A stretch of 64,000 nucleotides of DNA from positions 20,540 through 84,539 of the IMG/VR virus record IMGVR_UViG_3300032309_001318. The stretch is one strand, 5' to 3'. The translations under genes and the position numbers were made by a program. The DNA is from a virus. The notes under the pieces were generated by a model. The model was given only the letters and a program-made list of their open reading frames with translations. It was not told the origin of the DNA and did no database searches. How positions within the stretch are numbered: position 1 is the first letter of the stretch; the number at the start of each line of letters is the position of its first letter. Shown piece after piece: positions 1 through 19,818 of the stretch.

Positions 1-192
1 ACTCTTCCTTCATCTGGATATTCAACTGGTCAGTCAATTGATTTCTACCAAGCATCAGGAACTGGAGCGTCATTTGCTTCAACAAACAGTGTTGTTGGTA
101 CACCAGGATTAAAATTTAGAACAACAAATTCGGTTGTAACAGCAATGAAAACTCCAAGCGGTTGGTTAGTTTTCGGAGATCTTTTAGCTTAA
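1..192 (+). CDS. 3' end of a virion/tail-fibre-like protein (partial, runs off the window start)
   Basis: Frame 1 is open from base 1 to TAA at 190-192 and reads TLPSSGYSTGQSIDFYQ...PSGWLVFGDLLA*. A C-terminal W-x-x-x-GDL ending is typical of phage fibre/structural domains. Not in the ORF track. Confidence 0.6.
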   Translation, partial: TLPSSGYSTGQSIDFYQASGTGASFASTNSVVGTPGLKFRTTNSVVTAMKTPSGWLVFGDLLA

Positions 193-216: not shown

Positions 217-1506
217 ATGTCAAAACAAGCAGGTAGAATGAGCCAATCGGCTAATGACTTTTTAGAGCCATTTAAGCCAATTATCGGAACAGCAACAGAT
301 ATAGGAACAGATAGAGCATTTAATAATGGAGCCGCATCTGTACCATTTACAATGAGCGTAGATTCACCACCAGCTACTTCATATACAGTTACCTCAAGTC
401 CAGGAAGTTATACTGCTTCTGGATCTTCTTCTCCTATTACGGTACAAGGTTTACAATCTGGAACTAGTTATACATTTACAGTTATAGCTACAAACTCAGT
501 TGGTAATTCTGTGCCGTCAGACGCAAGTAATTCAATAACAGCAACAACAGTTCCACAAACACCAAGCGCTCCAAGTCTTTCAAATAATGGAGCAGAAACG
601 AACTCTGTTTCTTGGTCAGCCCCAGGAAATAATGGTGGAAAAGAAATTACTGGATATGGATTAATTGATCATGAAAATGATGTTACGTCATATAACTCTA
701 GTACATTTAGCGCTAACCTATCAGAAAACGGAAATGAAACCCAGACTGTTAGAGTAAGGGCTCAAAATGCTAATGGATTCTCATCATACAGCTCTAGCTC
801 AAACTCAGTTACTACAACACCATTTAGCTTTAGCCCATTTGGATTTACCCCATTTGGATTTACACCGTTTGGATTCACACCATTTGGCTTTACACCATTT
901 GGCTTTACACCATTTGGCTTTACTCCAAAATCGGTTGGAGCAGAAACAGTTATTAAATCAAAGGTGCCAGAAGGATTAATTCTTGCACACAACCTAAGCG
1001 TTGGCGACGTTTTATACTCTGCTAATATCGAGGGAATAGATGTTTCAAATACAGCAATAGTAGATTACATACAAAATTGGTCTGTTAGTAGCGCAAACAT
1101 ATCCCCAGCCGAAACTACCATTGTTGCAATGGCAGCAAGAATTGCTGACGAAGGAGCTATTGTTATTAATGGAAATAAATATTCTTTACAGCACTTTATT
1201 TTAGTAAAAAGAGATGGACAGATTCAATTCCAACCATCATCAAGCGTATTGGAAACAGATTTAATTTTTTCACCAAGCGAAAATAACTGGAAAGAAATCA
1301 CAGACTATAAAGTAACTACACAAAAAGAGTTACTAATATCAATTGACGTAGAGCCATACGACGTATTCTTTACAGACAATGCGCTAGTACACGATTCATA
1401 TAGAGCAAAAACTGATCCAAACGCATTAACTTCTAGCGACGAGACATTTAGCGACAAGTTGGATGCAATGTATCAGCAATGGAGAGATTCTCAAGACCAA
1501 GCCTAG
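217..1506 (+). CDS. Fibronectin type III (x2) virion-associated protein with Pro-Phe-Gly-Phe-Thr repeats and a C-terminal Hint (intein-like) domain
   Basis: RBS GAGGAG upstream. FN3 signatures (VQGLQSGTSYTFTVIATNSVG; VSWSAPGNNGG...VRVRAQNANG). Then PFSFS+(PFGFT)x6, then SVGAETVI...LSVGDVL...SLQH...IDVEPYDVFFTDNALVHDS. Confidence 0.8.
   Translation: MSKQAGRMSQSANDFLEPFKPIIGTATDIGTDRAFNNGAASVPFTMSVDSPPATSYTVTSSPGSYTASGSSSPITVQGLQSGTSYTFTVIATNSVGNSVPSDASNSITATTVPQTPSAPSLSNNGAETNSVSWSAPGNNGGKEITGYGLIDHENDVTSYNSSTFSANLSENGNETQTVRVRAQNANGFSSYSSSSNSVTTTPFSFSPFGFTPFGFTPFGFTPFGFTPFGFTPFGFTPKSVGAETVIKSKVPEGLILAHNLSVGDVLYSANIEGIDVSNTAIVDYIQNWSVSSANISPAETTIVAMAARIADEGAIVINGNKYSLQHFILVKRDGQIQFQPSSSVLETDLIFSPSENNWKEITDYKVTTQKELLISIDVEPYDVFFTDNALVHDSYRAKTDPNALTSSDETFSDKLDAMYQQWRDSQDQA
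820..924 (+). repeat. Seven tandem 15-bp units encoding PFSFS + 6x PFGFT
   Basis: ccatttagctttagc, ccatttggatttacc, ccatttggatttaca, ccgtttggattcaca, ccatttggctttaca x2, ccatttggctttact. Differences among the PFGFT units are all synonymous. Confidence 0.97.
931..1395 (+). other. Hint/intein-like autoprocessing domain (Ser1 ... His-Asp, followed by Ser)
   Basis: Block A-like SVGAETVI..G...A.NL.VGD.L, block B-like YSLQHFILV (TxxH position), block F/G-like ISIDVEPYDVFFTDNALVHD|S. Confidence 0.75.
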
Positions 1507-4884: not shown

Positions 4885-5532
4885 ATGATTAATAATATGC
4901 AAATGAATCAGCCAACAGGTAAAGAGCATAAATTTTTTGAAAGATATTTAGACAATGACCTAGGCCAATTAGCAGAGTTTTTACAGAACCAATATTCTAA
5001 TATGGAAAACTTAAATCTCACTGGCATAACAAAGGTGACAGAGAGAGATCACTGGCTATCATCAGACAGCGTCTCTACTATAAAATGGAGGGAATATAAT
5101 GTTTTTCAATTTTATCATCCATCAATACATAAGCTATATAAAAACCTTGTAGAAATGGTTAAAGAAGCTTGTGAGTATTATGAAATTGATTTTGAAAAAC
5201 AACAATACATGATTCAAGGCTGGTTTAATATTAATTATAACGACAAAGGAAAGCTAGACTGGCACGATCACGGTGGACCGTATGCTCCATATTTTCACGG
5301 ATACTATTGCGTAAAAGCAGAGCCATCTACAACGTATTATAAAGTTTTTGGTAAAGAAGTTGATAATCACAATAAAGACAACAGGCTTATCATATCAGAA
5401 ATGGGACATCCACATGCAATGGGATCTTGGGACTGGGAAGGCCCTAGAGTAACAATTGCATACGATATAGTTCCATTAAAAAGTTTAATAGCAAACAAGG
5501 CACATCCACAACATTGGATACCAATATGTTAA
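4885..5532 (+). CDS. Putative 2OG-Fe(II) oxygenase (TIGR02466-like)
   Basis: GWFNIN, WHDH, HGYYCV, HPH, RVTIAYD: the double-stranded beta-helix oxygenase pattern. Confidence 0.7.
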   Translation: MINNMQMNQPTGKEHKFFERYLDNDLGQLAEFLQNQYSNMENLNLTGITKVTERDHWLSSDSVSTIKWREYNVFQFYHPSIHKLYKNLVEMVKEACEYYEIDFEKQQYMIQGWFNINYNDKGKLDWHDHGGPYAPYFHGYYCVKAEPSTTYYKVFGKEVDNHNKDNRLIISEMGHPHAMGSWDWEGPRVTIAYDIVPLKSLIANKAHPQHWIPIC

Positions 5533-6176
5533 ATAAACCACAAAAATTTTTTGAATCATATTTAAATAATGATACGCAAGCACTATCAAAATATTTATAT
5601 AAAATAAACGATGAAATTATTAAAGAAAATTCTTTAAATTTATCTAATGAGGTTTTAGATAAATATAAAAATTTACCAGGCGCAGCAACAAAAATTGGAA
5701 TAAATCATTATAATATTTTTATGTTTCCAATCGATGAGATATATAACCTATATTGTGAATTAAAAAATCTTACAAAAAAAGCATGTGAATATTATGAAAT
5801 AGATTTTAATTTTGAAAACTATGTAATACATGGCTGGTTTAATTTTGACTATAAGTCTACCGAGAATAAGGTCGATCCAGTAAAAAATCCAGAGCAACTT
5901 CATGATCATTTTGGAGGAACTGGCATACCACATTTTCACGGGTACTATTGTGTAAATGCCGAGCCATCCATAACATACTATAAGCTAGATAAAAATAATA
6001 ATGATTTATTTGAAAATGTTAATAAAAATAATAGAGCAATTATTTCCGAAACTGGCTACCCCCATGCTAGAGGAGATTGGCAACAAGACCAAGCAAGAGT
6101 AACAATTGCATACGATATTGTTCCGTTTAGAGAGATTAGCAATAGTAAATCTATGAAATGGATACCATTCAAATAA
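5526..6176 (+). CDS. Putative 2OG-Fe(II) oxygenase (TIGR02466-like), paralog of 4885
   Basis: Start moved to ATG 5526. GWFN, LHDH, HGYYCV.AEPS, YPH, RVTIAYDIVP, WIP. Confidence 0.7.
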   Translation: MLNKPQKFFESYLNNDTQALSKYLYKINDEIIKENSLNLSNEVLDKYKNLPGAATKIGINHYNIFMFPIDEIYNLYCELKNLTKKACEYYEIDFNFENYVIHGWFNFDYKSTENKVDPVKNPEQLHDHFGGTGIPHFHGYYCVNAEPSITYYKLDKNNNDLFENVNKNNRAIISETGYPHARGDWQQDQARVTIAYDIVPFREISNSKSMKWIPFK

Positions 6177-6991
6177 TGGAAAATATTGGTATATGCATTT
6201 ACAGCTATCAAAATAAAAATTTATTTAAAACTGTATCTGAAATTATAGACAAATCTAGTCAAAAAAATATGTTATATTTTTACATTATTGATCAAAATAA
6301 TGTAGACAGAACTAGATCCCTAGACCAACCAGATTTTTATGCATCAATTGTTTATAAATATGTTACGTGGGACTCTATTAAAAGCCCAATTGAATATAAG
6401 CGGGATGCATTTAAGTCACTGAATAAAAAATATTATATGCAAATTGGAGACGATGTTTCATTAGCTAAAGATTGGGACATCCATGCAGTTGAATTTTTAA
6501 AGAATAATAAAAACTCAATTTTATCTGGAAATTCTACGGTTACCTTAAAAAATAAAAATTGGTTCATGCTAGAGCCAGAAAGAGTACCATCTTCAAATTT
6601 TAATAAAATAAATTATATAGACAGAAATTTTATATTTGCATTGTCTGAAGATTTTGCAATAATAAATCAACCAACTCACTTAAAATACTTTGGAGAAGAA
6701 GAAAGTATTTCAATAGATTTAATTAATAGTGGCGTAGATATTTATAATTTTCCAGACGAATACATATCAATTAATAAAAATTCAGTAGAGGATAAATATA
6801 CCCCATTTTCTTTAACCCATAACTATAATCAATTTATTGAAAAATATTCAAATGAAATTCAAAAAAACTTTAATATAAATTTAATGCAGCTACCGTTTGA
6901 AGATAACGATGTTGCTTACGACACTGGCCAGTCTCAAATAGATAGAATGGGCGGATTAAGATATCTTGACAGGATTAAGGAGATCAGGTAA
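6176..6991 (+). CDS. Glycosyltransferase, similar to the GlcNAc-transferase (Skp1 Gnt1-like) family
   Basis: Start moved to ATG 6176 (TAATG overlap). I..YSY, IIDQ, YYMQIGDD (family consensus YxLQIDSH), WD, NFIF, YFGEE.S.SI...SG.DIY. Confidence 0.55.
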   Translation: MENIGICIYSYQNKNLFKTVSEIIDKSSQKNMLYFYIIDQNNVDRTRSLDQPDFYASIVYKYVTWDSIKSPIEYKRDAFKSLNKKYYMQIGDDVSLAKDWDIHAVEFLKNNKNSILSGNSTVTLKNKNWFMLEPERVPSSNFNKINYIDRNFIFALSEDFAIINQPTHLKYFGEEESISIDLINSGVDIYNFPDEYISINKNSVEDKYTPFSLTHNYNQFIEKYSNEIQKNFNINLMQLPFEDNDVAYDTGQSQIDRMGGLRYLDRIKEIR

Positions 6992-7533
6992 TGTTAATAA
7001 AAATAGTAGAAGATTTTATATCAGAACAAGATGCATTTTCTCTTATGGAAGAGATGCAATCGCCGTCAAAAATAAACCCGTATCCAGAATACTATAAAGA
7101 TAGAAACGGCGGAACTGCTTTCCCATATAACAATAGGGTAATGGATATACTTAAAAAATATTCAGTAAGAGCAAACCACATTCAGAAAGAATTTTTTAAC
7201 TTAAAAGACAAAGTAATTGTTACTAAGGCTTTTGGCTCGTGGTGGCAGCCAGGACAAAGTGGAAGTCCTCACATAGACGCAATTGAAAAAGAACCATTCA
7301 TAGAATATAGCACCGTAATTTATTTAAATGACGAGTACGAGGGCGGAGAGATATATTTTCCTAAACAAGCATTTTCTTTAAAGGCCAAAAAGTATTCTGC
7401 TATATTTTTCCCAGGAAATGATTATCAATATATTCATGGGGTTAAAGAAATTACTTCTGGCAGTAGGTATACAGCCCTCTATATGCAATCAACCAAGCAA
7501 GAGTTCGTAGACCCAGATTTTAGGGAGTGCTAA
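6991..7533 (+). CDS. Prolyl 4-hydroxylase-like 2OG-Fe(II) oxygenase
   Basis: HID iron motif, YLNDEYEGGEIYFP, HGVKEITSGSRY. Confidence 0.85.
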   Translation: MLIKIVEDFISEQDAFSLMEEMQSPSKINPYPEYYKDRNGGTAFPYNNRVMDILKKYSVRANHIQKEFFNLKDKVIVTKAFGSWWQPGQSGSPHIDAIEKEPFIEYSTVIYLNDEYEGGEIYFPKQAFSLKAKKYSAIFFPGNDYQYIHGVKEITSGSRYTALYMQSTKQEFVDPDFREC

Positions 7534-7535
7534 TA

Positions 7536-8189
7536 ATGCAATATCAAGAGTTGGCTTTAGGCGTTGTGTATTATAAAAATATTATAAAAGATCCCAATGA
7601 ACTAATTAATAAAATAGAGTCTTTAGAAGAAAAAAGAAGCCTACAAAAAGACTATAGGTCACAATCAGTAAAGCCTTGGCAAGCATGGGACTATGATCAC
7701 GGCAATAAAGAAAAAACAATATTCTGTTGGCAAAAATTTTTACCAAAGCCAAATGATATAGATGTTAATGATTATTTTTATAAAGAACAACACGAAATAT
7801 CTTCTGAGTTATTTAATGGTTTAGAAGATGGATTAAAACATTATTTTTCATTATATCCATATGCTGAAAAAAATATTAAATCTAGAGAAAAAACAATGCA
7901 CCTATTAAAATATAAAGAAAGCGGATTCCTACCAGCCCACTCAGACCATGGTATAAGCAGTAGAGTTTTATCGGCACTTCTTTATTTAAATGACGATTAT
8001 GAAGGTGGCAACATAAGATTCCCGCATTGTAATATTGACATGAAGCCAGAAGCTGGAAGCCTATTGTTTTTCCCATCAAATTTTGTTTACGTTCACGAAG
8101 TTGATGCGGTAACAAGCGGAACAAGATATTCATTGCCAAACTGGTATCATAATAGAAAAAACGCATACTACTCAGACGGGACAGAATAA
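7536..8189 (+). CDS. Prolyl 4-hydroxylase-like 2OG-Fe(II) oxygenase
   Basis: Start moved to ATG 7536. HSD, YLNDDYEGG.I.F, FFPSNFVY.HEV..VTSGTRY. Confidence 0.85.
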   Translation: MQYQELALGVVYYKNIIKDPNELINKIESLEEKRSLQKDYRSQSVKPWQAWDYDHGNKEKTIFCWQKFLPKPNDIDVNDYFYKEQHEISSELFNGLEDGLKHYFSLYPYAEKNIKSREKTMHLLKYKESGFLPAHSDHGISSRVLSALLYLNDDYEGGNIRFPHCNIDMKPEAGSLLFFPSNFVYVHEVDAVTSGTRYSLPNWYHNRKNAYYSDGTE

Positions 8190-8878
8190 TGATTATAGTA
8201 ACTGGATCGAGCAGGGGAATTGGGAATGTAATAGCAAATAGGCTTTCTAAAAATGGATATGATGTCATTGGCATATCAAGAGGTATGCCTCAAAACGATG
8301 TATCCTTTAAAACTTATCAAGCAGACGTAAGCCAAAAAAATACCTTAACTCCAATATTTGAAGATTTAAAAGAAAAAAATATTACAGTACAAGCTTTAAT
8401 AAATTGTGCTGGAATACTAGAAACCCCATTTGTAGACTGGCTAACAATAGAACAGAGCGAAATGGAATCAATATTTTCTACAAACGTAATAGGAACAATG
8501 AATTCTTGTCAAGTGTTTTTACCATTAATGGACAAAAAACAACATACACCAATAATAAATATGGCAAGCCTATCAGCGCATTCAGTAACCGATTTTGCAA
8601 TATATGGGGCAAGCAAGCATGCAGTATATGGATTTACAAAATCTTTAGCAAAAAAATTACAAAATACATCTATCAGACCAAACTGCATATCACCAGGCCC
8701 AATAAAATCAACAATGACAGAGGGCATACCAGACATGGCTTTTAAGCTATTTGCTGGCCCACAAATTATTAACCGAACAGTGTTCACATCTGACGACATA
8801 TGCAATATTGTAGAGCTTTTGCTTGACCCAAAATCAAGTAGTTTAACTGGACAAGCATTCCACATTGGTGGATACTAA
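8189..8878 (+). CDS. Short-chain dehydrogenase/reductase (SDR)
   Basis: TGSSRGIG, INCAG, YGASK catalytic motif, N.ISPG. Confidence 0.92.
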   Translation: MIIVTGSSRGIGNVIANRLSKNGYDVIGISRGMPQNDVSFKTYQADVSQKNTLTPIFEDLKEKNITVQALINCAGILETPFVDWLTIEQSEMESIFSTNVIGTMNSCQVFLPLMDKKQHTPIINMASLSAHSVTDFAIYGASKHAVYGFTKSLAKKLQNTSIRPNCISPGPIKSTMTEGIPDMAFKLFAGPQIINRTVFTSDDICNIVELLLDPKSSSLTGQAFHIGGY

Positions 8879-8903: not shown

Positions 8904-10643
8904 ATGTCATACTCTTATAAAATACTAAAAGACCATCCAATTGGATTCTGGCAACTAGATGACTCTACGGCTACAGCAATAGACATTTCTGGATGCGGTA
9001 ATAATGGAGTTTATACAGGAAGCCTTCCAAGCCAAACTAAAATAATGCCAATGGTTTCTGGAGGCCAGTACTCAGCAAAAATTACTTCCTTATCAAAAAT
9101 AGAGTTTGCAATTATTAATGATTATTACGCACAAGCAGCAGGGGGAGGATTTGGAACGCTAGACACAGCTGATAATGAATTTACGCTAGAGTGTTGGATT
9201 TTACCAAAAATATCTTCTACAAACCTTACTCCAATTTTTATAGATTCTTCTAATGATCTTGGAATTGCTTGGCAAAACAACAATATTATATTTGTTATTG
9301 GCACCGAAACTTTAGAGTACACAGTTCCAGAAACTAATAAGTCTATTTATGTTGTATGCAAATATTCAGTAAATTCAGCATCAATATATTTAGACGGGAA
9401 CTTGGCTATTAGCAAAACAATAACTGGCGTTCCCTTTGAAAATACACAGGTCTTATTAAAGTCTGGGCCTACACAAAATAGCGCAGACGAGTTTTTAATA
9501 GATAATCCAGCAGTGTATAGATACTCTTTATCAGAAAAACAAATTAAAGATCATTACCTAAGTAATCAAAATACTTTACCAATACAGATTGCGTATCCAG
9601 ATAATGGAGAAATTTTTAATATTTATGACAATGGAATGAGAACATCATTTACTTATAATTATCCAAAAGATAAATCTTGGCAATATTTTTTAACAGAGGA
9701 TCTTACGCTAGGTAGGTCAGAAGAATATATTCAATTATCTAAGACAGATTTATTAGAAACAAAAGAAGTTATTTTAAAAGATATTATATCTATGCCTTCT
9801 GGTATATCAATGGATTCTTCAAAAATTCAATGGGACGGTAGCTCTGGAATTTCTGTTTATACAAGTCTAGACGGAGTGTCTTATGAACAATGCGAAAACG
9901 GATATTCAATACCTCAGTACAAGTATTCAGATTTTAACCAACAAAGATTTTTTCATTTAAAAATAGTAGTTTCTTCAACAGACTCCTCTAGATATATTCC
10001 AAAACTTTATTCATTATCAGTAAATTTTTACTCTGAGCAAATAGCTTATTCTAAAAATGGAGCGTCTTATGTTTATAAAATAGATAACCTAGATTATAGC
10101 CTTGGCAAAGAGGCTTATCCAATATTATCAATGAATAAATTAAATGGAGTATTAGTCCCAAATAATTCAGGGTTTAAGGTAGATATTCCATATGATACAA
10201 ATAGCATTGAGTTTTTCTATACCCCAAGCAGTATATTAAAAAGTTTATTAATATCATCTACTGGTACGGAATTTAGCTGGGCGGATAGCGGGTCTATATC
10301 AAAAACTAATATATCTAAAATATACGTAAATGGTGAAGATAAAACAGCACAATCAAATATATCCAATGTATTAAATTCAGGATATTTAAATCATATTGTA
10401 ATTGTTTTTCAAGCACCCATCTCTGGAGATCTGGTCTTTAATTATAAAAGCACTGGGTCTAAGAAGGGCTCATATCAGCATATAACCCTATATAGGGATG
10501 CTTTAGATCAAAATAAGGCAATAACTCATTACAATTTATATACTGGAAGATCGGTATATACCTCTACCGCATCTGCCATGTCGGTGACAGAAAGATCTCC
10601 TGAAATATATAATAATGACTGGATTGTTATTCAAAATTCATAA
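8904..10643 (+). CDS. LamG/concanavalin-A-like domain virion protein
   Basis: D.PIGFWQLDD...A.DISGCGNNG.Y, FTLECW, IYLDG, AVYRYSLS..QI..HY. Confidence 0.75.
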   Translation: MSYSYKILKDHPIGFWQLDDSTATAIDISGCGNNGVYTGSLPSQTKIMPMVSGGQYSAKITSLSKIEFAIINDYYAQAAGGGFGTLDTADNEFTLECWILPKISSTNLTPIFIDSSNDLGIAWQNNNIIFVIGTETLEYTVPETNKSIYVVCKYSVNSASIYLDGNLAISKTITGVPFENTQVLLKSGPTQNSADEFLIDNPAVYRYSLSEKQIKDHYLSNQNTLPIQIAYPDNGEIFNIYDNGMRTSFTYNYPKDKSWQYFLTEDLTLGRSEEYIQLSKTDLLETKEVILKDIISMPSGISMDSSKIQWDGSSGISVYTSLDGVSYEQCENGYSIPQYKYSDFNQQRFFHLKIVVSSTDSSRYIPKLYSLSVNFYSEQIAYSKNGASYVYKIDNLDYSLGKEAYPILSMNKLNGVLVPNNSGFKVDIPYDTNSIEFFYTPSSILKSLLISSTGTEFSWADSGSISKTNISKIYVNGEDKTAQSNISNVLNSGYLNHIVIVFQAPISGDLVFNYKSTGSKKGSYQHITLYRDALDQNKAITHYNLYTGRSVYTSTASAMSVTERSPEIYNNDWIVIQNS

Positions 10644-11042: not shown

Positions 11043-12626
11043 ATGGAGTTCATGAACGAAGACCCTAGCGTCTCAGAAACTATTGACATATCAAACTCTG
11101 CAGACTGGATAAAGTTTAATAATAAAGAAGTTGTATTAAGTGATGATCCATTTAGCATTGAAGGCGAAGAGTTAAAGAAAGTTAATGGACTAAGCCCAAC
11201 ATTTCGTAGAAAAATATCTAGAGAGTTTCAAAAGCGTTTTATAGGACAAGAAGGAACTGGAACACAACAGAATCTACTACAACAAGCAGTTACTGGATAC
11301 GCAATGTTTGACCTTGTCCAACCAGTCTATAATCTTGAATATCTTTCAAAAATTTATGAGATATCCCCATACAACTACTCAGCAATTAATGCAAAGGTTG
11401 CTAACATTGTTGGCCTTGGATACTCTTTTGTAGAAACAAAAAAAGCTAACGATGCTTTAGATAATATTACTGATAAAAAACAATTAGAACGTGCTCGACG
11501 TAAATTAAATAAACTTCGTCAAGATTTAGATTATTGGCTAGAGGAAACAAATGAAGAAGAAACATTTACAGAAACATTAGTAAAAGCTTATACAGATTTA
11601 GAGGCTACTGGCAATGGATACATTGAAATTGGAAGAACCGTGTCTGGGAATATTGGGTACATCGGACATATACCATCCAAGACAATGCGGGTACGTAGAC
11701 TTCGTGACGGATTTATACAACTTCTTTATGGCAAGGCAGTATACTTTAGAAACTTTGCAGATCAAGAAACTCCTAACCCAATTTCTGGAGCAGAAGATCG
11801 TCCAAATGAAGTTATTCATTTAAAGAAATATACGCCAATGAACAATTACTACGGAATCCCAGATATAATTGCTGCACAAACTGCAATGGCAGGAAATGAA
11901 TTTTCTGGAAAATATAACTTAGATTATTTTGAAAATAAAGCGGTTCCAAGGTATATAATTACAGTAAAGGGTGCAAAGCTTTCACCAGAATCCGAACGTA
12001 AACTACTAGAATTTTTCCAAGTTGGGCTAAAGGGTAAAAACCATAGATCACTCTATGTACCACTTCCAGCGGATACATCTGACTCTAAAGTTGAATTTAA
12101 AATGGAACCTATTGAGGCAAACCCACAGGAGTCTTCATTTAATGTATACAGAAAAGCAAATAGAGATGAAATCCTTTTAGCACACAGAGTCCCAGTAAAT
12201 AAAATTGGAGTTCCAGAAGGAGTCAGCCTAGCTTCAGCAAGAGATGCAGATAAAATGTTTAAAGAACAAGTTTGTAGGCCAGCTCAAGATATTTTAGAAA
12301 AGAAAATAAATAGAATTATTTCTGAAAAAACAGATGCATTAATGCTTAAATTTAATGAATTGACTTTAACAGACGAAGATACACAATCTAAAATTGATGA
12401 AAGATATTTAAGAATGCAGGTGATTACCCCCAATGAAGTTAGAATTAGAAAGGGTATGATACCGATGGACGGTGGAGATGAGGTTGTTGATTTGCAGGCA
12501 CAAGCAGCCGAAATCAAGGCTCAGGCATTAAATACCAGAAATAGAACTCAGGAAAGATCGGCCAATTCACCAGATAGTTCTGGGGAAGCCAGAAATCCAA
12601 AAGGTGAGGGTAGAGTCACAGCTTAA
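11043..12626 (+). CDS. Portal protein (HK97/PBSX family)
   Basis: D.EATGNGYIEI.R, EVIHLK......YYGIP, YFEN.AVP, ILLAHRVP..KIG, TPNEVR. Sits before the protease and capsid genes. Confidence 0.92.
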   Translation: MEFMNEDPSVSETIDISNSADWIKFNNKEVVLSDDPFSIEGEELKKVNGLSPTFRRKISREFQKRFIGQEGTGTQQNLLQQAVTGYAMFDLVQPVYNLEYLSKIYEISPYNYSAINAKVANIVGLGYSFVETKKANDALDNITDKKQLERARRKLNKLRQDLDYWLEETNEEETFTETLVKAYTDLEATGNGYIEIGRTVSGNIGYIGHIPSKTMRVRRLRDGFIQLLYGKAVYFRNFADQETPNPISGAEDRPNEVIHLKKYTPMNNYYGIPDIIAAQTAMAGNEFSGKYNLDYFENKAVPRYIITVKGAKLSPESERKLLEFFQVGLKGKNHRSLYVPLPADTSDSKVEFKMEPIEANPQESSFNVYRKANRDEILLAHRVPVNKIGVPEGVSLASARDADKMFKEQVCRPAQDILEKKINRIISEKTDALMLKFNELTLTDEDTQSKIDERYLRMQVITPNEVRIRKGMIPMDGGDEVVDLQAQAAEIKAQALNTRNRTQERSANSPDSSGEARNPKGEGRVTA

Positions 12627-12680: not shown

Positions 12681-13991
12681 ATGAATATTGAAAAATCTTA
12701 TTGGTCCAGCAATGGCGATAATATCAGCCTATCAGTTCCATTCACAAAAGTAAACCGTGAAAAGAGAACTGTATCTGGTTTTGCCACACTAGACAACCTA
12801 GATCAAACAAATGACGTTGTAACCGCAGAAGCAAGTCTAAAAGCATTTGAAGGTTTCCGTGGAAACATTAGAGAAATGCACGGGTCAAACGCAGTTGGTA
12901 AAATGGTTTCATTTAAGCCAGAAACATACTTTGACGCAAAAAGCGGAGAATTTTATAACGGAGTTTATGTAGATGCATACATTTCTAAAGGTGCACAAGA
13001 TACATGGGAAAAGGTTTTAGACGGTACTCTTTCAGGATTTTCAATTGGTGGAAAAATTATTGAGTCTGATAACGAGGTTAATAAATCTACAGGTCAATCA
13101 GTTCGTTTTATTAAAAACTATTCTTTACTAGAGCTATCAGTCGTAGATTCTCCAGCAAATGAACTATGTAACATTATCTCAATTTCCAAAATGAATGGTC
13201 AATTAATTTTTAAAGGAATTGCAACAGAAGTTTCAACAGAAAATATTTTTTATTGTGAAGAAAGCGATTCTGTTTTTATGTCAAAAGAAAAAGAATTTAA
13301 TTCTCCAATAACTGGTAAGCCAGCAAGTTTAATTGGCTGGGTAGAAAGTAACGATGTAAACAAAGCTAAAGAAATAGAAAAGATTCTTGCTTCATTTAAG
13401 AAGTCAAGATTAACGTTGCCTGAAACACAAACAATAGCAAAACAGGCAAACGCACAAGGAGGTAATGAAGTGTCAGAAAACACAGAAACAGTAGCAGTTG
13501 AAGAAACTGCTCTAGTAGAAGTTTCAGCACCTGCACAAGATGCAGTAGTTGAAAAAGCTGTTACAGAAGACGTAGTAGCAGATACTTCTGCCGAAACCGT
13601 TGAAAAAGCAGCAGACGTCTCAGAGGTCGTTGTTGATGAACCTGATTTTGCAAAAATGTTAGGTGATTTAAAAGGCTTTTTCTCAGATACTCTAAGCAAA
13701 GCTTCAGAAGCTAATGCTGCACAGGTAACAACTATTAAAGAAACAGTTGAAGCTTTCAGCAAGAGCGTTGAGACTCAAATCTCAGAGTTGGCAGATAAAC
13801 ACACAGAACTCAGCAAAACAGTTGAGAACATCAAGAGCACGATTGATAATGTAGAAAAGCGTGTCGACGCAGTAGAATCAGAGACTGCAATTAAGAAGTC
13901 CTCAGACCTTGGCGGGTCTCAGGAAGTAGTAATACAAAAATCAAAATGGAACGGTTCTTTCCTCGGTTCCGTAAACGAACTATTTAAATAA
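12681..13991 (+). CDS. Capsid maturation protease with C-terminal scaffold-like coiled coil
   Basis: R.VSGFAT...D...D, IREMH, GFSIGG, ELSVVDSPAN (HK97-type protease); acidic Ala/Glu/Val-rich tail. Confidence 0.88.
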   Translation: MNIEKSYWSSNGDNISLSVPFTKVNREKRTVSGFATLDNLDQTNDVVTAEASLKAFEGFRGNIREMHGSNAVGKMVSFKPETYFDAKSGEFYNGVYVDAYISKGAQDTWEKVLDGTLSGFSIGGKIIESDNEVNKSTGQSVRFIKNYSLLELSVVDSPANELCNIISISKMNGQLIFKGIATEVSTENIFYCEESDSVFMSKEKEFNSPITGKPASLIGWVESNDVNKAKEIEKILASFKKSRLTLPETQTIAKQANAQGGNEVSENTETVAVEETALVEVSAPAQDAVVEKAVTEDVVADTSAETVEKAADVSEVVVDEPDFAKMLGDLKGFFSDTLSKASEANAAQVTTIKETVEAFSKSVETQISELADKHTELSKTVENIKSTIDNVEKRVDAVESETAIKKSSDLGGSQEVVIQKSKWNGSFLGSVNELFK

Positions 13992-14009
13992 AGGGTAGGT
14001 GAAATAAAT

Positions 14010-15062
14010 ATGAGCAATGAATTATTAGAAAAGGCAATTGCAACTGGCACAACAGCTACAGGAACATTTGCTTCAACAACTGGAGGAGAGGGAATTCACA
14101 CAGGGTCAGAAAATGGCAATGGTGGACTACTTAATCCAGAACAATCAGCTCGATTTCTAGACTACATGTTCGATGCAACCGTAATTGGTAAAGTCGCACG
14201 TACCGTTAGAATGAAATCTGATACAACTGAAATTGATCGCATGGGAGTAGGCGAAAAGCTTATGAAACTTGCGACTGAAGGAGATGACGCAAACAGTGGT
14301 AACTCTGCTGTGACATTCTCAAAAATTTCTTTGACAACAAAGAAGTTACGTCTAGATTGGGAACTTTCAACTGAGTCTCTAGAAGACAATATTGAAGGTG
14401 CAGATCTAGAAGATCATATTGCACGTCTGATGGCAACACAGGCTGGTAACGATATTGAAGATTTGGTTCTTAACGGAAACACATCTCTATCATCTGATCA
14501 ACTTTACAAAGCATTTGACGGAACAGTTAAGCTTGCAAAAGCAAACGGTCACGTAGTAGATGCTGGTGGAGCCGCAATTACTCGTGCTGTATTTAACAGC
14601 GCATTAAAGGCACTTCCACGTAAGTACAAGCAACGTCGTACAGACCTTCGCTTCCTTTCAGGTTCAAACCTGATTCAGGATTACTTATACGCAACTTCAC
14701 AAAATATCCAAAACGTTAACCCACAAGATATTGCTTCTGGCATTATCCGTGGTGAGGTAGCACCTGTATCTGGCCCAGCTGGATACGTAGCTCCATACGC
14801 ATTTGGTATTCCAATTGTTGAAGTTCCATTACTAAGCGAGACACAAACTGGCTCATACTCAGGAGCAACAGGATCACACGGTGACGTCCACTTGACATTC
14901 CCAAATAACGTAGTTATTGGTATCAAGCGTGATGTAACTGTATACAGATTCTTCTGGCCAAAGAAGGACTCAATCGAGTACACAATGTATACTCGTGTTG
15001 GTGTTCAAATTGAGCAAGCAGATGCTTGGGTAGTAGTAAAGAACGTTAAGATTGCTTCCTAA
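14010..15062 (+). CDS. Major capsid protein (HK97 fold)
   Basis: GGLLNPEQ..RF, ELSTESLEDNIEG, GIPIVEVP. Strongly biased codon usage; followed by a terminator. Confidence 0.92.
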   Translation: MSNELLEKAIATGTTATGTFASTTGGEGIHTGSENGNGGLLNPEQSARFLDYMFDATVIGKVARTVRMKSDTTEIDRMGVGEKLMKLATEGDDANSGNSAVTFSKISLTTKKLRLDWELSTESLEDNIEGADLEDHIARLMATQAGNDIEDLVLNGNTSLSSDQLYKAFDGTVKLAKANGHVVDAGGAAITRAVFNSALKALPRKYKQRRTDLRFLSGSNLIQDYLYATSQNIQNVNPQDIASGIIRGEVAPVSGPAGYVAPYAFGIPIVEVPLLSETQTGSYSGATGSHGDVHLTFPNNVVIGIKRDVTVYRFFWPKKDSIEYTMYTRVGVQIEQADAWVVVKNVKIAS

Positions 15063-15080
15063 TTAGGAATTAATCCAAAT

Positions 15081-15116
15081 AGAGGCCCCCAATTAATTTT
15101 GGGGGCTTCTCATTTT
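15081..15116 (+). terminator. Intrinsic terminator after the capsid gene
   Basis: AGAGGCCCCCAA-loop-TTGGGGGCTTCT followed by CATTTT. Confidence 0.8.
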
Positions 15117-15126
15117 AATTTAGTAA

Positions 15127-15135
15127 TGCTATAAT
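15127..15135 (+). promoter_or_regulatory. Extended -10 promoter TGcTATAAT
   Basis: Upstream of the AAGGAG RBS and ATG 15162. Confidence 0.6.
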
Positions 15136-15161
15136 TAAATAACCTAGACTAAGGAGAATAT

Positions 15162-15557
15162 ATGTCATTTGAGACATTAAAATTAGCTGAACTTAAAAAG
15201 GTTGCCGAAGACTTCGGAGTAGACTTAGAAAACTTAAAAAGCAAAACAGACATAATTGCGGGACTATCAGAAGAAGGTGTAACTTGGGCGGTATACTCAA
15301 AAACACTTAAAGATATAGATGATGCAAAAGAAGAGATTGAAGTTTTACCAAGATTTGATGTAAAGAAAAAACAAAATAAAGACGAAGTTCTTGTAAGAAT
15401 GGATAGATCTAACCATAGGTACGATACAATGGGATACACGTTTACAAAAGATCATCCTTTTGCAGCAATGTCAGAAGAGGCAGCTCAAGAAATTTTTGAT
15501 AAGGAGGAGGGTTTTAGATTAGCCACACCAAAGGAAGCACAAGACTTCTACAACTAA
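15162..15557 (+). CDS. Hypothetical head-region protein with a Rho-N/HeH-like N-terminus
   Basis: LKLAELKKVAEDFGVD....K.DII; good RBS. Confidence 0.55.
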   Translation: MSFETLKLAELKKVAEDFGVDLENLKSKTDIIAGLSEEGVTWAVYSKTLKDIDDAKEEIEVLPRFDVKKKQNKDEVLVRMDRSNHRYDTMGYTFTKDHPFAAMSEEAAQEIFDKEEGFRLATPKEAQDFYN

Positions 15558-15571
15558 TTTAAACCTTTAAT

Positions 15572-16558
15572 ATGGCAGAAGTATACATAAATACTAATTC
15601 ACCAACATCAACTAAAATACTTTTTGGTGGTGAAATTATAAATTCAGACAATGATTACGTTATGGCTACAGTTTATGATATTACAGAAGATCCTGCCGTC
15701 ACACCATTGGTAAATCCAGAAATGCCAGTTCTTTCTATTCAAGCAACAAAAATAGAAACCGATAATGGTTCATACAAAATAAACATCCCATATCACTTAA
15801 CTAATAGAATAAAGAAATTTAAGGTTAATTGGGGATACCAAATAAATAGTCAATCTCAAAGCCATGCAACCTATGTCGATGTGGTACAGCCGTATTGCAA
15901 CCTAGCAGAAGCTATTGAAGATCTGGGTTTTGGAACTGATTCATCTGACCCAAACTATAAAACGTATCACGAACTAGTAATGGCAGAAAAGTATGCACGT
16001 AAAGTAATAGAAAACTATACTGGCCAAAAGTTTTGTCTATACGATGATGTCCAAGTTGCATATGGTTCGGGATCAGATATACTTCCGCTACCATTTAAAT
16101 TAAACACATTGCATGAATTATATTCAAATGATATTTTATTAGTAGACACTCTTAATGAAATAAATAATTGGAATTATTCAACTCAAATAACAGAATCTGG
16201 TTTTGGAATAAGAATTAATCGAGCAGACATGCTGGACAATACAGTGTACACAGCAAATGGAATGGTTCCACCATCAATCAATGATCATGGCTCTGGAATT
16301 TTTATTAAAGACTACAGGTATCGTGTGCAAGGAAGATATGGATGGGACACCGTACCAGACGATATTGAAATAGCATGTATAGAGTTAATGAAAGATTATT
16401 TTTCTAAAGACTCTATTTGGAGAGCAAAATACGTAAACAATGTTCAGTCATTTGATTGGAAGTTTGAGTACAATGCAGAGGCATATCGTGGAACAGGAAA
16501 TGTATACGTAGACCAAATGCTTCTTCCATATGTATTAACTCAATTAATGGTAATCTGA
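15572..16558 (+). CDS. Head-to-tail adaptor
   Basis: AR.VIENYTGQKF, G.YGW..VP.DI..A..EL, TGN.YVDQ.L.PY; synteny. Confidence 0.7.
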   Translation: MAEVYINTNSPTSTKILFGGEIINSDNDYVMATVYDITEDPAVTPLVNPEMPVLSIQATKIETDNGSYKINIPYHLTNRIKKFKVNWGYQINSQSQSHATYVDVVQPYCNLAEAIEDLGFGTDSSDPNYKTYHELVMAEKYARKVIENYTGQKFCLYDDVQVAYGSGSDILPLPFKLNTLHELYSNDILLVDTLNEINNWNYSTQITESGFGIRINRADMLDNTVYTANGMVPPSINDHGSGIFIKDYRYRVQGRYGWDTVPDDIEIACIELMKDYFSKDSIWRAKYVNNVQSFDWKFEYNAEAYRGTGNVYVDQMLLPYVLTQLMVI

Positions 16559-16986
16559 TGTTTAGAGTAGTAGATGCTTCGTTTTCTATGCTTATGGATG
16601 TCTACAAGCAGTCTGACTCTCAAGACGTATCTACTGGGGCAATCAAAAAAGAGTGGAACTATATAAAAACAGTTTCTTGTTATGCAAAAGGCGTTATCAG
16701 TAACACAGCCACAGCACGAAGTGGTGATAGGCAAGTTCTTGGAACTAAATACGAAAACGTTCAAGTTATAGAAGTTAGAACAAACTCAAAGCTATCCATT
16801 AGAGAAAAAATCACAAATATTAGAACAGGCAATGGGGAGAATATTTGGACAGAATTAGATTATCCAAATGATACCCCAACCGTATTTGAAGTAGTAGGAG
16901 TAACCCCAATGACAGATCCATTTGGAGATGTGCTTGCATGGAGTGCCGTACTAAAAAGATCGGAGAATCAGCAAATTGGAATCTAA
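16558..16986 (+). CDS. Head-closure/stopper protein
   Basis: Synteny after the adaptor; size and beta-rich character. Confidence 0.55.
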   Translation: MFRVVDASFSMLMDVYKQSDSQDVSTGAIKKEWNYIKTVSCYAKGVISNTATARSGDRQVLGTKYENVQVIEVRTNSKLSIREKITNIRTGNGENIWTELDYPNDTPTVFEVVGVTPMTDPFGDVLAWSAVLKRSENQQIGI

Positions 16987-18380: not shown

Positions 18381-19043
18381 ATGTCATTTAACAATGCCAA
18401 AAATATTCTTGTAGGTGCATCACCACTTTTCATTTCTGAGAAGGACTCAACACAGTCAGGTTATGTAGTACAAGAACCAGGATCAGTAGCAGCAGCTGCT
18501 TTTGCAGCTGGAGTTTCATACACAACAACATTAAACGCTTTAAATGGTTCAAAGTATCGTAACGTTGGTTTTACCAACAACGGTCTTCAAATCACTTATA
18601 ATCCAACATACGATTCAGTAACAGTAGATCAGCTACTTGATACAGCTAAGCTGTTCAAGTCTGCGATGGAGGTTATGATTGCAACAGAAATGGCCGAAGG
18701 AACACTAGAAAACGTTCTAGTAGTTTTCGGACAGGCTGGAGCACCAGCAACATCAGGCACAGGAAATACAAAGACAGACACAATCGGTCTTGAAGCAGGA
18801 GCTCTTGGTATTGCACCAACAGAGCGTCAGCTAATTGCCGTAGGTCAAGCACCTACAGCAGATGCCGCATCAGCTGAGCGTATTTACTATGGACGTCGTG
18901 TTTTGTCAGTACAACAGTCACAATTTTCTTTGGCTCGTACCCAAGCAACAACATTCCCAGTAACATTCCGTCTTCTTCCAGATTCAGCATACGCTGGTCA
19001 AGAATACGGTAAGATTATTGACCGTACATTAACAGTAGCTTAA
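18381..19043 (+). CDS. Major tail (tube) protein
   Basis: GGAGG RBS. NILVGA, VG.T.NGL...YNP......VDQ, FPVTFRLLP. Followed by a terminator and the chaperone genes. Confidence 0.85.
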   Translation: MSFNNAKNILVGASPLFISEKDSTQSGYVVQEPGSVAAAAFAAGVSYTTTLNALNGSKYRNVGFTNNGLQITYNPTYDSVTVDQLLDTAKLFKSAMEVMIATEMAEGTLENVLVVFGQAGAPATSGTGNTKTDTIGLEAGALGIAPTERQLIAVGQAPTADAASAERIYYGRRVLSVQQSQFSLARTQATTFPVTFRLLPDSAYAGQEYGKIIDRTLTVA

Positions 19044-19062
19044 TTTAATTTAATTAAATTAT

Positions 19063-19096
19063 AGAGACCCCCATTGATTTGGGGGTCTTTCTATTT
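19063..19096 (+). terminator. Intrinsic terminator after the tail tube gene
   Basis: AGAGACCCCCA-loop-TGGGGGTCTTT then CTATTT. Confidence 0.8.
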
Positions 19097-19123
19097 GTAG
19101 TGATAATGCCTATATGTTATAAT
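19095..19123 (+). promoter_or_regulatory. Promoter TTGTAG-N17-TATAAT with extended TG
   Basis: -10 at 19118-19123, upstream of the AGGAGG RBS. Confidence 0.6.
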
Positions 19124-19149
19124 AATTTAGACAATCCTAGGAGGATAAA

Positions 19150-19482
19150 TTGGCTACAACCGTATACAATGTAGAAGAAATTGAACTGCAAAATGGTTCA
19201 AAGATTAAATTAAAGCCACTGAGCATTAAGGCGCTACGCCTGTTTATGGCAGAGATTCAAAAAACACAATCGGCAGAAAATGAAGACGAAACATTAACAA
19301 TTCTAATTAACGCATGTGGAATTGCAATACAGTCACAGTTACCAGATTTGGTAGCAAATAAAGATTTACTAGAAGAAGCTTTGGACATGCCAACAATCAA
19401 TCGCATTCTTGACGTTTGCGGAGGGATCAAGCTTGACGACCCAAACCTTCTAGCGGCAGCGGTTCTGGCTGGTCAGAACTAG
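19150..19482 (+). CDS. Tail assembly chaperone (gpG-like)
   Basis: TTG start with AGGAGG RBS; lies between tail tube and tape measure genes. Confidence 0.85.
   Translation: MATTVYNVEEIELQNGSKIKLKPLSIKALRLFMAEIQKTQSAENEDETLTILINACGIAIQSQLPDLVANKDLLEEALDMPTINRILDVCGGIKLDDPNLLAAAVLAGQN
19440..19446 (+). other. Programmed -1 frameshift slippery site C CCA AAC
   Basis: X XXY YYZ heptamer in the gpG frame. The -1 frame has a stop at 19434-19436 and is then open to 19808. Confidence 0.8.
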
Positions 19483-19808
19483 ATTTAGCCGCTTTGCTAG
19501 GAGAAGTTTTTCTTTTAGGTAATTGGAAAAATTACGAAGAACTAGAAGAAAGTCTTTCAATGCCAGAGTTAATACAAACATTTAAGTCTATGCAAAAGAC
19601 TGAAGAAGAAAAAAGAAAATTCTTGGCTTCTTTACAAGGTGTAAACTTAAACGAAGAAGAAAAAACAGAAGGTCCAACCTTCGAAGATATACAAAGAAGG
19701 GCTTTGGGAATAGATGCATCAGGAGATGATGTAGTTTCCTTACAAGGCCCACTTGCAGCACAGCAAGGATTTGGTATTGGGGTAGGGTTAGGATACTCTA
19801 AGGGGTAG
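19440..19808 (+). CDS. C-terminal part of the frameshifted tail assembly chaperone (gpGT-like)
   Basis: -1 frame reads PKPSSGSGSGWSELDLAALLGEVFLLG... and includes track ORF 19494-19808, which has no RBS of its own. Confidence 0.78.
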   Translation, partial: PKPSSGSGSGWSELDLAALLGEVFLLGNWKNYEELEESLSMPELIQTFKSMQKTEEEKRKFLASLQGVNLNEEEKTEGPTFEDIQRRALGIDASGDDVVSLQGPLAAQQGFGIGVGLGYSKG

Positions 19809-19818
19809 AATATAGTTA

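Follow-up and report, generated by a model that had tools for sequence, protein, structure and literature searches.

A predicted self-removing Hint domain at the C-terminus of an FN3-repeat protein encoded in a phage tail-fibre region

Hint domains occur as selfish inteins, in Hedgehog proteins as the processing domain, and in surface proteins and toxins of bacteria as bacterial intein-like (BIL) or pre-toxin domains. Hedgehog proteins additionally carry a sterol-recognition region, which is required for transfer. In phages, tailspikes and fibres may end in a C-terminal intramolecular chaperone (Peptidase_S74) that removes itself at a conserved serine after assembly. For BIL domains, passages of PMC4031507 and PMC7664689 report that cleavage prevails over splicing, and define type A by the absence of a +1 nucleophile; type B, according to a passage of PMC4031507, has no similarity to intein block G. 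The same source reports inteins that end in Asp and whose C-terminal site is cleaved by cyclization. A literature search for a Hint domain at the C-terminus of fibre or virion proteins of phages found no paper; the phage papers found to mention Hint deal with terminase or reductase inteins.

We describe such a domain in a window (the whole stretch of DNA analysed, 64,000 nucleotides) from an uncultured phage whose host group is probably the actinobacteria. The features considered are the following.

1-192, + strand: 3' end of the upstream tail-fibre gene (721 aa), which starts 1974 nt before the first base of the window; the protein ends ...W-L-V-F-G-D-L-L-A
217-1506, + strand: whole gene of 429 aa, comprising an N-terminal segment, two FN3 domains, an aromatic-proline repeat, a Hint domain and a helical tail
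817-927, + strand: 15-nt tandem repeat (7.4 copies, 87% matches, score 152), encoding PFSFS-(PFGFT)6
928-933, + strand: predicted scissile junction Lys238-Ser239 (residue -1 and Hint residue 1), from alignment to 2lwy and gp41-1
931-1395, + strand: Hint domain Ser239-Asp393 (155 aa), from the family profile, AlphaFold2 model, Foldseek and VIA-align
1183-1194, + strand: block B, S-L-Q-H (Ser323...His326), at the place of TxxH and aligned to T-F-D-H of 2lwy
1390-1398, + strand: block G, His392-Asp393, in line with the His-Asn end of 2lwy and gp41-1 and followed by Ser394 (+1)
1396-1503, + strand: 36-aa tail, Ser394-Ala429
1522-2169, + strand: d01 (215 aa), conserved downstream partner, adjoining 56/77 Hint ORFs away from a contig edge

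The gene is preceded by a purine-rich GAGGAG 8 nt 5' of its ATG and ends with a stop codon at 1504-1506; the last 191 residues (239-429) correspond to nucleotides 931-1503. Pfam assigns fn3 to two stretches of the protein (E 7.7e-10), and the host of the Hint domain is FN3 plus repeat and not an enzyme, in agreement with an earlier sequence-only reading of this DNA, which held that no conserved enzyme is interrupted. That reading had also noted a Ser1 start, S-L-Q-H at the block-B position, an L-V-H-D-S end and a 36-aa tail. All of these are read in the sequence itself, L-V-H-D-S at 1384-1398; in the family profile Ser239 (931-933) aligns with position 1 of 2lwy and gp41-1.

Single-sequence searches give no Hint match. 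The 429-aa protein matches no Hint family in Pfam even at E<=10 and nothing in NCBIfam, and phmmer against PDB returns chance matches only (spermidine synthase, E 1.6); the link to Hint therefore needs the family profile or the fold. The profile of 84 family representatives matches 2lwy, the bacterial intein-like domain of C. thermocellum (E 3.9e-10), the gp41-1 intein (E 2.2e-8) and BIL2 of Tetrahymena (6y75/6tmm, E 1.5e-7). Pfam matches among these 84 members comprise Intein_splicing (19), PT-HINT (8), Hint_2 (7), Hom_end_hint (6) and Hint (2). The AlphaFold2 model of the Hint region (pLDDT 96.0, pTM 0.90) has 37 Foldseek matches in PDB at E<=1e-3, every one listed being a Hint domain, with BIL2 of Tetrahymena at the top (E 7.5e-6). 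VIA-align gives Z 16.1-12.6 and rmsd 1.6-2.9 A over 117-138 residues for the 50 entries listed, the rmsd of the 19 best being 1.6-2.1 A; the matches include inteins, BIL domains and Hedgehog, at Z up to 16 and rmsd 1.6-2.0 A. Model residues 1 to 155 cover the full length of each intein, with residue 1 on chain residue 1, as befits a Hint beta-fold whose two termini meet at the active site. The profile search and structure prediction that the sequence-only reading had proposed as a check thus come out in favour of a Hint fold and, judged by profile and predicted fold, the C-terminal region is a genuine Hint domain of the intein/Hedgehog type, with a resemblance far above chance. With only 155 aa the domain leaves no room for an endonuclease insert, as had been stated before.

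Conservation was assessed on the 84 representatives (<=50% identity), using 83 of them for C-terminal counts and the 61 that cover position 1 for that position. Ser or Cys stands at position 1 in 60 of 61, block B retains its Ser/Thr in 82 of 84 and its His in 81 of 84, and block G, [HYF]-[DN], is kept in 80 of 83, of which 50 end in Asp and 30 in Asn. The domain is preceded by Lys (residue -1) in 23 of 60 representatives. The +1 position is variable: Ser or Thr is found in 35/83, whereas 48/83 have none of Ser, Thr and Cys; Ser+1 goes together with His-Asp in 30/83. At the margin of the family, relatives have Cys...His-Asn. The idea that Asp serves as base for Ser1 (Ser1-Asp versus Cys1-Asn covariation) was dropped because a 56-row tree offers only a single independent pair (Ser/Cys, 1 change; Asp/Asn, 3 changes). 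The heads N-terminal to Hint vary (PASTA in 18, fn3 in 14, also PKD, CBM96 and collagen-like), and the (PFGFT)-type repeat is kept in both FN3- and PASTA-headed relatives. The family is very large, and its Hint domain is always terminal on fibre-region proteins.

This pattern makes N-terminal processing the best-supported activity of the Hint domain as far as residues can tell, as the sequence-only reading had suggested. We consider it somewhat probable, from conservation and the predicted fold, that the 191 C-terminal residues are an active, non-splicing Hint unit that acts as a facultative self-removing cap and cuts at Lys238-Ser239. After folding, Ser239 would attack the carbonyl of Lys238 in an N-to-O acyl shift, aided by Ser323 and His326 of block B, and the resulting ester would be hydrolysed, with water as acceptor. 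The mature product released would carry both FN3 domains followed by the (PFGFT) repeat, with ...FTPK-COOH as its end, and the Hint domain would be lost along with the 36-residue helical tail. A probable partner of the mature product is the tail fibre, whose gene lies immediately 5'. Cleavage, the role of water and the partnership with the fibre are all inferred. The cap is read as facultative because the +1 nucleophile and the tail vary and Hint-less alleles exist. One feature argues against this reading: a pure N-terminal cleaver would not obviously need the nearly constant Asp/Asn end, and neither Hedgehog Hints nor type B BILs retain block G. A Hint fold without catalysis, kept on the protein as an anchoring or binding domain, is very improbable. 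It would fit a conserved C-terminal module behind variable heads, a layout also typical of anchors, and the match of the Hint module to PHROG 38766, a 'virion structural protein', but conservation is highest at the catalytic positions, and the Hint-less alleles speak against it as well.

The region behind the Hint domain bears on whether the protein splices. Class-1-type splicing would pass the Ser239 ester to Ser394, Asp393 would cyclize, and FN3-(PFGFT)n-Lys238 would be joined to the 36-residue tail with excision of the Hint domain. All the residues needed are present, and in the close clade (19 sequences) Ser1, the block-B His, the penultimate His, the terminal Asp and Ser+1 are invariant, which is a further point against the cap reading. 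A C-terminal Asp is an accepted variant according to a passage of PMC4031507, and the pairing of Ser+1 with His-Asp mentioned above would likewise suit splicing. The tail itself contains Tyr419 and Trp422, both invariant in the close clade. In the wider family, 65 of 83 relatives have <=9 residues past the terminal Asp/Asn, 10 of these 65 having a single residue, and a tail of at least 35 residues occurs in just 6 of 83; by these counts most relatives have no usable C-extein, and the tail is dispensable across the wider family. Relatives with the same synteny, i.e. with the fibre upstream and d01 downstream, have tails of 4-13 residues or one Lys. We also find no protein of ~274 aa, the size expected of a spliced or Hint-less-plus-tail form, among the best 120 homologues that cover most of the N-terminal part. 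The tail is modelled at high pLDDT with the Hint domain (predicted helix at residues 411-428, nucleotides 1447-1500), suggesting that it is part of the Hint unit, a weak argument given that only 6 of 84 rows are long-tailed; no Hint structure in the VIA-align comparison covers it. We regard splicing as unlikely. The proposal that the tail acts as an adduct-recognition region or an obligatory C-extein is not supported by these counts. Its retention within its clade, together with the high pLDDT, indicates that the tail does something, which again does not sit easily with a mere cap.

Hint-less alleles provide a second line of evidence. They were sought in a second locus set of 63 complete + strand ORFs (>=60 aa, >=3 repeat motifs), which was not de-duplicated and contains many near-copies; 17 of the 63 lack the Hint domain. 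These ORFs lie in the same gene slot, with the fibre on one side and the d06/d07 homologues on the other, and stop 3-11 residues past the last repeat, 42-111 nt before the next gene. No tail-like sequence is found in the 17 Hint-less ORFs, a further point against splicing. The layout predicted for the mature product of the cap reading is that of these natural alleles, which could also have a different biology and not be equivalent to a cleaved product. The same FN3-repeat passenger is also seen with a Hint domain of the form Cys1...THNK-COOH (P0276).

On a tree of the passenger, from which identical proteins, L143 and rows with an N-terminal part <120 aa were left out, the 45 closely related rows require no fewer than 12 changes of the Hint state; six of the rows are coded 'Hint_other', with no call of their first Hint residue. 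For the Hint-less state at least 6 changes are forced by well-supported branches, and Hint-less rows group as sisters of Hint-bearing ones with SH-aLRT 98-99. Such a sporadic pattern is expected of a dispensable element. It would suit a quasi-selfish remnant of a terminal intein that confers no benefit, persists by clean self-removal and is spread or lost by recombination via flanking repeat DNA, for which the 15-nt tandem repeat directly 5' could serve. Against this stand the missing endonuclease, the size of the family and its constant terminal position behind varied heads, two paralogous Hint copies kept in one genome, and the acquisition of a conserved clade-specific tail; its chemistry is that of the cap reading, from which it differs in purpose only. 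We hold it to be improbable. An inserted intein would leave its flanks contiguous in element-free alleles, while the Hint-less ORFs here simply end. The earlier statement that the domain is not a selfish intein is only partly secure: the lack of an endonuclease and of an enzyme host agrees with it, the frequent changes of Hint state do not.

The genomic context of the gene is a phage tail/head module, and homologues in cultured jumbo phages (Erwinia, Yersinia) sit among tail-fibre genes. In a first locus set, whose counts are not de-duplicated and include many near-copies, a fibre homologue lies directly 5' of 60 of the 75 Hint ORFs away from a contig edge, and the motif W...GD[LI]xx at the fibre end is seen in 53 of the 75. 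The downstream partner d01 has no match in Pfam, PHROG, NCBIfam or a phage database, and its family profile finds nothing in PDB. Its AlphaFold2 model is mediocre (pLDDT 66) and has no Foldseek match at E<=1e-3; GNAT acetyltransferases make up nearly all of its top rows, and a GNAT fold is probable enough to serve as a lead only. Several Hint-bearing loci of the second set have no d01, which is therefore not obligatory for Hint.

The conserved neighbourhood would be compatible with a transfer reaction similar to that of Hedgehog or BUBL proteins, in which the Ser239 ester would be resolved by a lysine or the amino terminus of the fibre, by a cell-wall amine or by a small molecule, coupling the FN3-repeat module to it covalently. 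The fibre and the Hint protein form a tightly conserved gene pair, the fibre C-terminus is conserved, and a probable GNAT-fold protein follows directly 3' in the 56 of 77 cases given above. There is also precedent: Hedgehog uses the first acyl shift alone, for cholesterol addition (PMC7664689), and BIL2 of Tetrahymena, our top Foldseek match, conjugates a ubiquitin-like domain to lysines (PMC8616854). Direct signs of an acceptor are absent, the Hint-less alleles in the same slot would be incapable of such transfer, the number of Hint-state changes among the 45 passengers is odd for an essential coupling device, and the tail proposed as recognition region is missing from most relatives. We rate transfer as a poor candidate. 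The sequence-only reading had suggested transfer of the FN3 part onto an adduct; the occurrence of this passenger with a Hint of the form Cys1...His-Asn-Lys-COOH (P0276), or with none, goes against it. A specific form would be ligase-free coupling, in which the ester is aminolysed by the upstream fibre (C-terminus W..V.GDL.A) or by a host cell-wall amine and fixes an exchangeable FN3/PASTA adhesin, possibly after hydroxylation or glycosylation of (PFGFT) by neighbouring oxygenase and transferase genes. This form, too, is doubtful. If true, phages would have an equivalent of the cholesteroylation of Hedgehog or of the ubiquitin-like conjugation by BUBL.

If the self-removing cap is the correct reading, a large family of phage tail-fibre-region proteins capped by Hint would give (thio)ester autoprocessing a new setting, namely the maturation of host-recognition appendages. 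Ser/Asp and Cys/Asn forms that are interchangeable on the same passenger, together with cap-less alleles, offer a ready comparative system for asking what purpose a self-removing domain at a protein's end may have: help in folding or assembly, timing, shielding of a greasy repeat, or none at all. For protein engineering, the Ser1/His-Asp/Ser+1 variant, whose natural C-flank is short, could be attractive as a compact tag that cleaves itself off.

Among described systems, type A BIL domains (2lwy, the best PDB match of the family profile; Z 15.0, rmsd 1.6 A, 127 aa) share with the phage domain the mini Hint fold without endonuclease, an N-terminal nucleophile, a TxxH-type block B, a block G in the same aligned position, and hosts that are variable, surface-type and not enzymes. 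The phage domain differs in having Ser1 instead of Cys1 and His-Asp instead of His-Asn, and in lying at the extreme C-terminus of phage fibre-region proteins, where it follows an aromatic-proline repeat and has a short C-flank or none; its clade has added the 36-residue helical tail. The absence of a +1 nucleophile that defines type A holds for the 48 of 83 relatives but not for this protein, which has Ser394. Type B is set apart by the block G present in the phage family (80/83). BIL2 of the Tetrahymena thermophila BUBL1 locus (6y75/6tmm, Z 15.9) processes a module N-terminal to Hint, as is predicted for the phage domain, but it is flanked by two ubiquitin-like domains and makes an isopeptide bond with a lysine (PMC8616854), whereas the phage family has Hint-less alleles. 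Hedgehog/Hog domains (1at0, 6tyy; Z 15.9, rmsd 2.0 A, 132 aa) share the C-terminal Hint followed by an extra C-terminal region and, as predicted for the phage domain, the release of the N-terminal module by the first acyl shift; Hedgehog has Cys1 and no His-Asn/Asp block G, whereas the phage Hint keeps block G, and the phage tail is missing from most relatives. Peptidase_S74 chaperones provide a functional analogy only, with an unrelated fold and different chemistry, and a Pfam search with the 429-aa protein gives no Peptidase_S74 match. Class 1 mini-inteins with Ser1 or a C-terminal Asp/Gln (PMC4031507) share Ser1, the block-B His, the penultimate His, a cyclizable end and Ser+1; the phage Hint differs from them in that it is not located in a conserved host site and in that most of its relatives are without a C-extein.

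The Hint-bearing protein is encoded by a single ORF of 429 aa (window 217..1506, plus strand), with a purine-rich GAGGAG 8 nt 5' of the ATG. We refer to its terminal Hint domain as the cap and to the FN3-repeat part ahead of it as the passenger; the last four parts below were read directly in the sequence.

Features of the 429-aa protein
First part of the protein: conserved N-terminal segment, about 45 residues
After this segment: two FN3 domains (Pfam fn3, E 7.7e-10, two stretches)
817-927, plus strand: PFSFS-(PFGFT)6 repeat, a 15-nt tandem repeat of 7.4 copies
Between the aromatic repeat and the Hint part: Pro-Lys238
931..1503, plus strand: Hint domain and tail, 191 residues, C-terminal end of the protein
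931-933, plus strand: Ser239
1183-1194, plus strand: S-L-Q-H
1384-1398, plus strand: L-V-H-D-S
Ser394 to the stop: tail, 36 residues

The sequence-only reading had proposed a Hint domain starting with Ser, with SLQH in place of the intein block B (TxxH), and ending LVHD followed by Ser. Taken singly, the 429-aa sequence matches no Hint family in Pfam even at E<=10, and a phmmer search against the PDB gives chance matches only. An exhaustive phmmer search over 1.84 billion representatives yields 128 Hint relatives at E<=1e-3, 84 of which were used to build a family profile (alignment A2). [quoted passage not shown] Scanned singly, the 84 members match the Pfam families Intein_splicing (19), PT-HINT (8), Hint_2 (7), Hom_end_hint (6) and Hint (2). 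The AlphaFold2 model built on the A2 alignment (pLDDT 96.0, pTM 0.90) has 37 Foldseek matches in the PDB at E<=1e-3, and those listed are all BIL domains, inteins or Hedgehog. VIA-align superposes 50 listed entries with Z 16.1 to 12.6 and rmsd 1.6-2.9 A over 117-138 residues (1.6-2.1 A for the 19 best). Model residues 1..155 cover each intein from first to last residue, so that Ser239 corresponds to residue 1 and Asp393 to the terminal residue; the tail (model 159-191) falls outside every known Hint structure among the entries listed. On profile and model evidence the C-terminal domain is thus a Hint domain, although the single sequence alone does not reveal it, and the proposed motifs as well as the absence of an endonuclease from the domain are borne out.

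No variation is seen at Ser1, the block-B His, His-Asp-Ser or the tail residues Tyr419 and Trp422 among 19 close relatives (47-91% identical). The wider family is more varied.

Residue use among the Hint representatives
Position 1: Ser 45, Cys 15, among 61 representatives covering the position
Block B Ser/Thr: 82 of 84
Block B His: 81 of 84
Penultimate residue: His 56, Tyr 14, Phe 10 (n=83)
Terminal residue: Asp 50, Asn 30 (n=83)
Residue after the terminal Asp/Asn (+1): Ser 30, Thr 5, Cys never, non-nucleophile 48 (n=83)
Residues beyond the terminal Asp/Asn: at most 9 in 65 of 83 (a single residue in 10), at least 35 in 6 of 83

Ser-type domains end mostly in Asp, Cys-type domains in Asn. On a 56-row tree Ser and Cys changed only once, too few changes to read this pairing as co-evolution.

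The passenger also occurs with other caps and without any. The best 120 homologues covering most of the N-terminal 238 residues are 363-615 aa long; a length of about 274 aa, as expected for a spliced or a Hint-less-plus-tail protein, does not occur among them. One homologue, P0276, has the same FN3 and FGFTP-repeat passenger but a Cys1 ... T-H-N-K-COOH Hint. Two homologues end in the aromatic repeat, and for this reason 80 loci, near-copies included, were taken around relatives of one of them. These hold 64 repeat-bearing ORFs: 45 with Hint, 18 complete without, and one that runs off its contig. In one of the 18 (L143:2329-3640) the repeat protein and a Hint lie in two overlapping ORFs; a frameshift, a decaying cap or an error in sequencing may explain this. 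In the remaining 17, with 12 distinct endings, the stop comes 3-11 residues past the last repeat and 42-111 nt ahead of the next gene, leaving no space for a Hint. These ORFs fill the same slot, with the fibre gene on one side and homologues of d06 and d07, two downstream genes, on the other. On a tree of 45 distinct passengers (first 130 residues; states none, Ser-type, Cys-type, unresolved) the Hint state changes at least 12 times, a rough figure given the shortness of the tree and recombination among fibre genes; rows with and without a Hint stand as sisters (SH-aLRT 98-99). Judged from these alleles, the cap is facultative and exchangeable, independent of the number of changes.

We consider it fairly probable that the activity common to the family is to cut the N-terminal junction, in this protein Lys238|Ser239; the cut would shed the Hint and anything behind it. 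This agrees with the N-terminal processing proposed earlier and is argued from the strongly kept N-terminal catalytic set, the frequent lack of a C-extein or +1 nucleophile, the way Ser/Asp-tail and Cys/Asn-Lys caps replace each other on a single passenger, and cap-less alleles that end where cleavage would end the protein. Against cleavage, the window's clade holds every residue that class-1 splicing needs, Asp-ended inteins are reported functional in PMC4031507, and 80 of 83 relatives retain the terminal Asp/Asn, a residue not obviously needed for N-terminal cleavage. The tail, too, is conserved within the clade and modelled at pLDDT >90, though just 6 of 84 alignment rows have a long one. 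Splicing of the passenger to the 36-residue tail is unlikely. Still more doubtful, in our view, is resolution of the ester by one particular nucleophile that takes up the passenger, for which Hedgehog and BIL2 (conjugation to lysine, PMC8616854) are precedents; transfer of the FN3-repeat part to an adduct, with the tail as recognition region, had been suggested but finds no support, and short-tailed and cap-less relatives weigh against it. A strict intein is excluded by element-free alleles without contiguous flanks. The earlier verdict that the domain is not selfish is less secure given the sporadic distribution of caps, and a quasi-selfish remnant that cleaves in the same way but serves no purpose has a similarly low probability. 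Least credible is a non-catalytic anchor.

The virus record is 84.5 kb long, and the window makes up its final 64 kb. Some 10-15 kb downstream come genes for a portal, a prohead protease, a major-capsid-like protein and an adaptor. The portal (11043-12626) is 56% identical to portals of large Streptomyces phages (55-59% for the 120-134-kb Muntaha, Coruscant and Tomas). This resemblance, together with PASTA heads in the Hint family, suggests that the phage, which is AT-rich and uncultured, infects actinobacteria. A second Hint-capped protein, 5.4 kb upstream and outside the window, has a 62% identical Hint and is followed by a gene (G000, the genome of the record, 16146-16703) other than d01, the gene behind the window's Hint. 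Both copies directly follow a fibre gene with a RIQ.RR-type N-terminus and a W..V.GDL.A end, which may be a docking site.

Fibre genes and second Hint gene (record coordinates)
13765-15126 and 18566-20731 (3' end of the latter at window 1-192): two fibre genes with shared ends and differing middles
15096-16079: second Hint-capped protein with PASTA head, shorter aromatic repeat and 35-aa tail

Across 76 IMG/VR loci with 83 Hint ORFs (near-copies counted), 75 Hint ORFs are away from a contig edge, and 60 of them have a fibre homologue as their immediate upstream neighbour; the W...GD[LI]xx fibre end is present in 53 of 75. A d01 homologue comes next after 56 of the 77 Hint ORFs that are away from an edge in this count, and another 16 are followed by a homologue of the gene behind the PASTA copy. 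Cultured relatives occur only at the family edge, in Erwinia and Yersinia jumbo phages, where a collagen-like protein encoded among the tail-fibre genes closes with a Cys1 ... F-T-H-E-H ... V-H-N Hint and ten further residues. These collagen-like (Gly-X-Y) proteins with canonical Cys1/His-Asn Hint (Yersinia L003:2969-4411, Erwinia L004:2828-4261) carry no annotation beyond virion structural protein or tail fibre protein.

Gene d01 (1522-2169, 215 aa) has no match in Pfam, PHROG or NCBIfam. Its conserved R-x-Y-T-x-P-x-x-R-R-x-G motif resembles GNAT motif A; the top Foldseek rows of its AlphaFold2 model (pLDDT 66) are nearly all GNAT acetyltransferases, at a weak best E of 1.5e-3. The unannotated, paralogue-like pair d06 (4885-5532) and d07 (5514-6176) has no family match; their homologues follow the repeat protein with or without Hint, and hence track the aromatic repeat and not the Hint. 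The genes at 6158-8878 form a putative modification cluster, perhaps acting on the Pro/Thr-rich repeat by hydroxylation or glycosylation.

Genes of the putative modification cluster
6158-6991: GlcNAc-transferase match, weak (E 1e-3, below cut-off)
6991-7533: 2OG-Fe(II) oxygenase-like gene, weak match
7527-8189: 2OG-Fe(II) oxygenase-like gene (PF13640, E 2.5e-16)
8189-8878: short-chain dehydrogenase (E 1e-37)

Between this cluster and the portal gene lies a 579-aa Laminin_G_3 (concanavalin-like lectin) protein (8904-10643).

In the main texts of the literature searched, Hint caps are not described for fibre-region proteins of phages. Identity with a Hedgehog domain is rejected, and retention of block G excludes type B BIL domains. 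Type A BIL domains come closest; membership is not assigned, as the window's protein has Ser at +1, failing one defining feature, and ends in His-Asp, varying another. According to PMC4031507 and PMC7664689, these domains mostly cleave, and the cleavage predicted here would be a variant of that activity.
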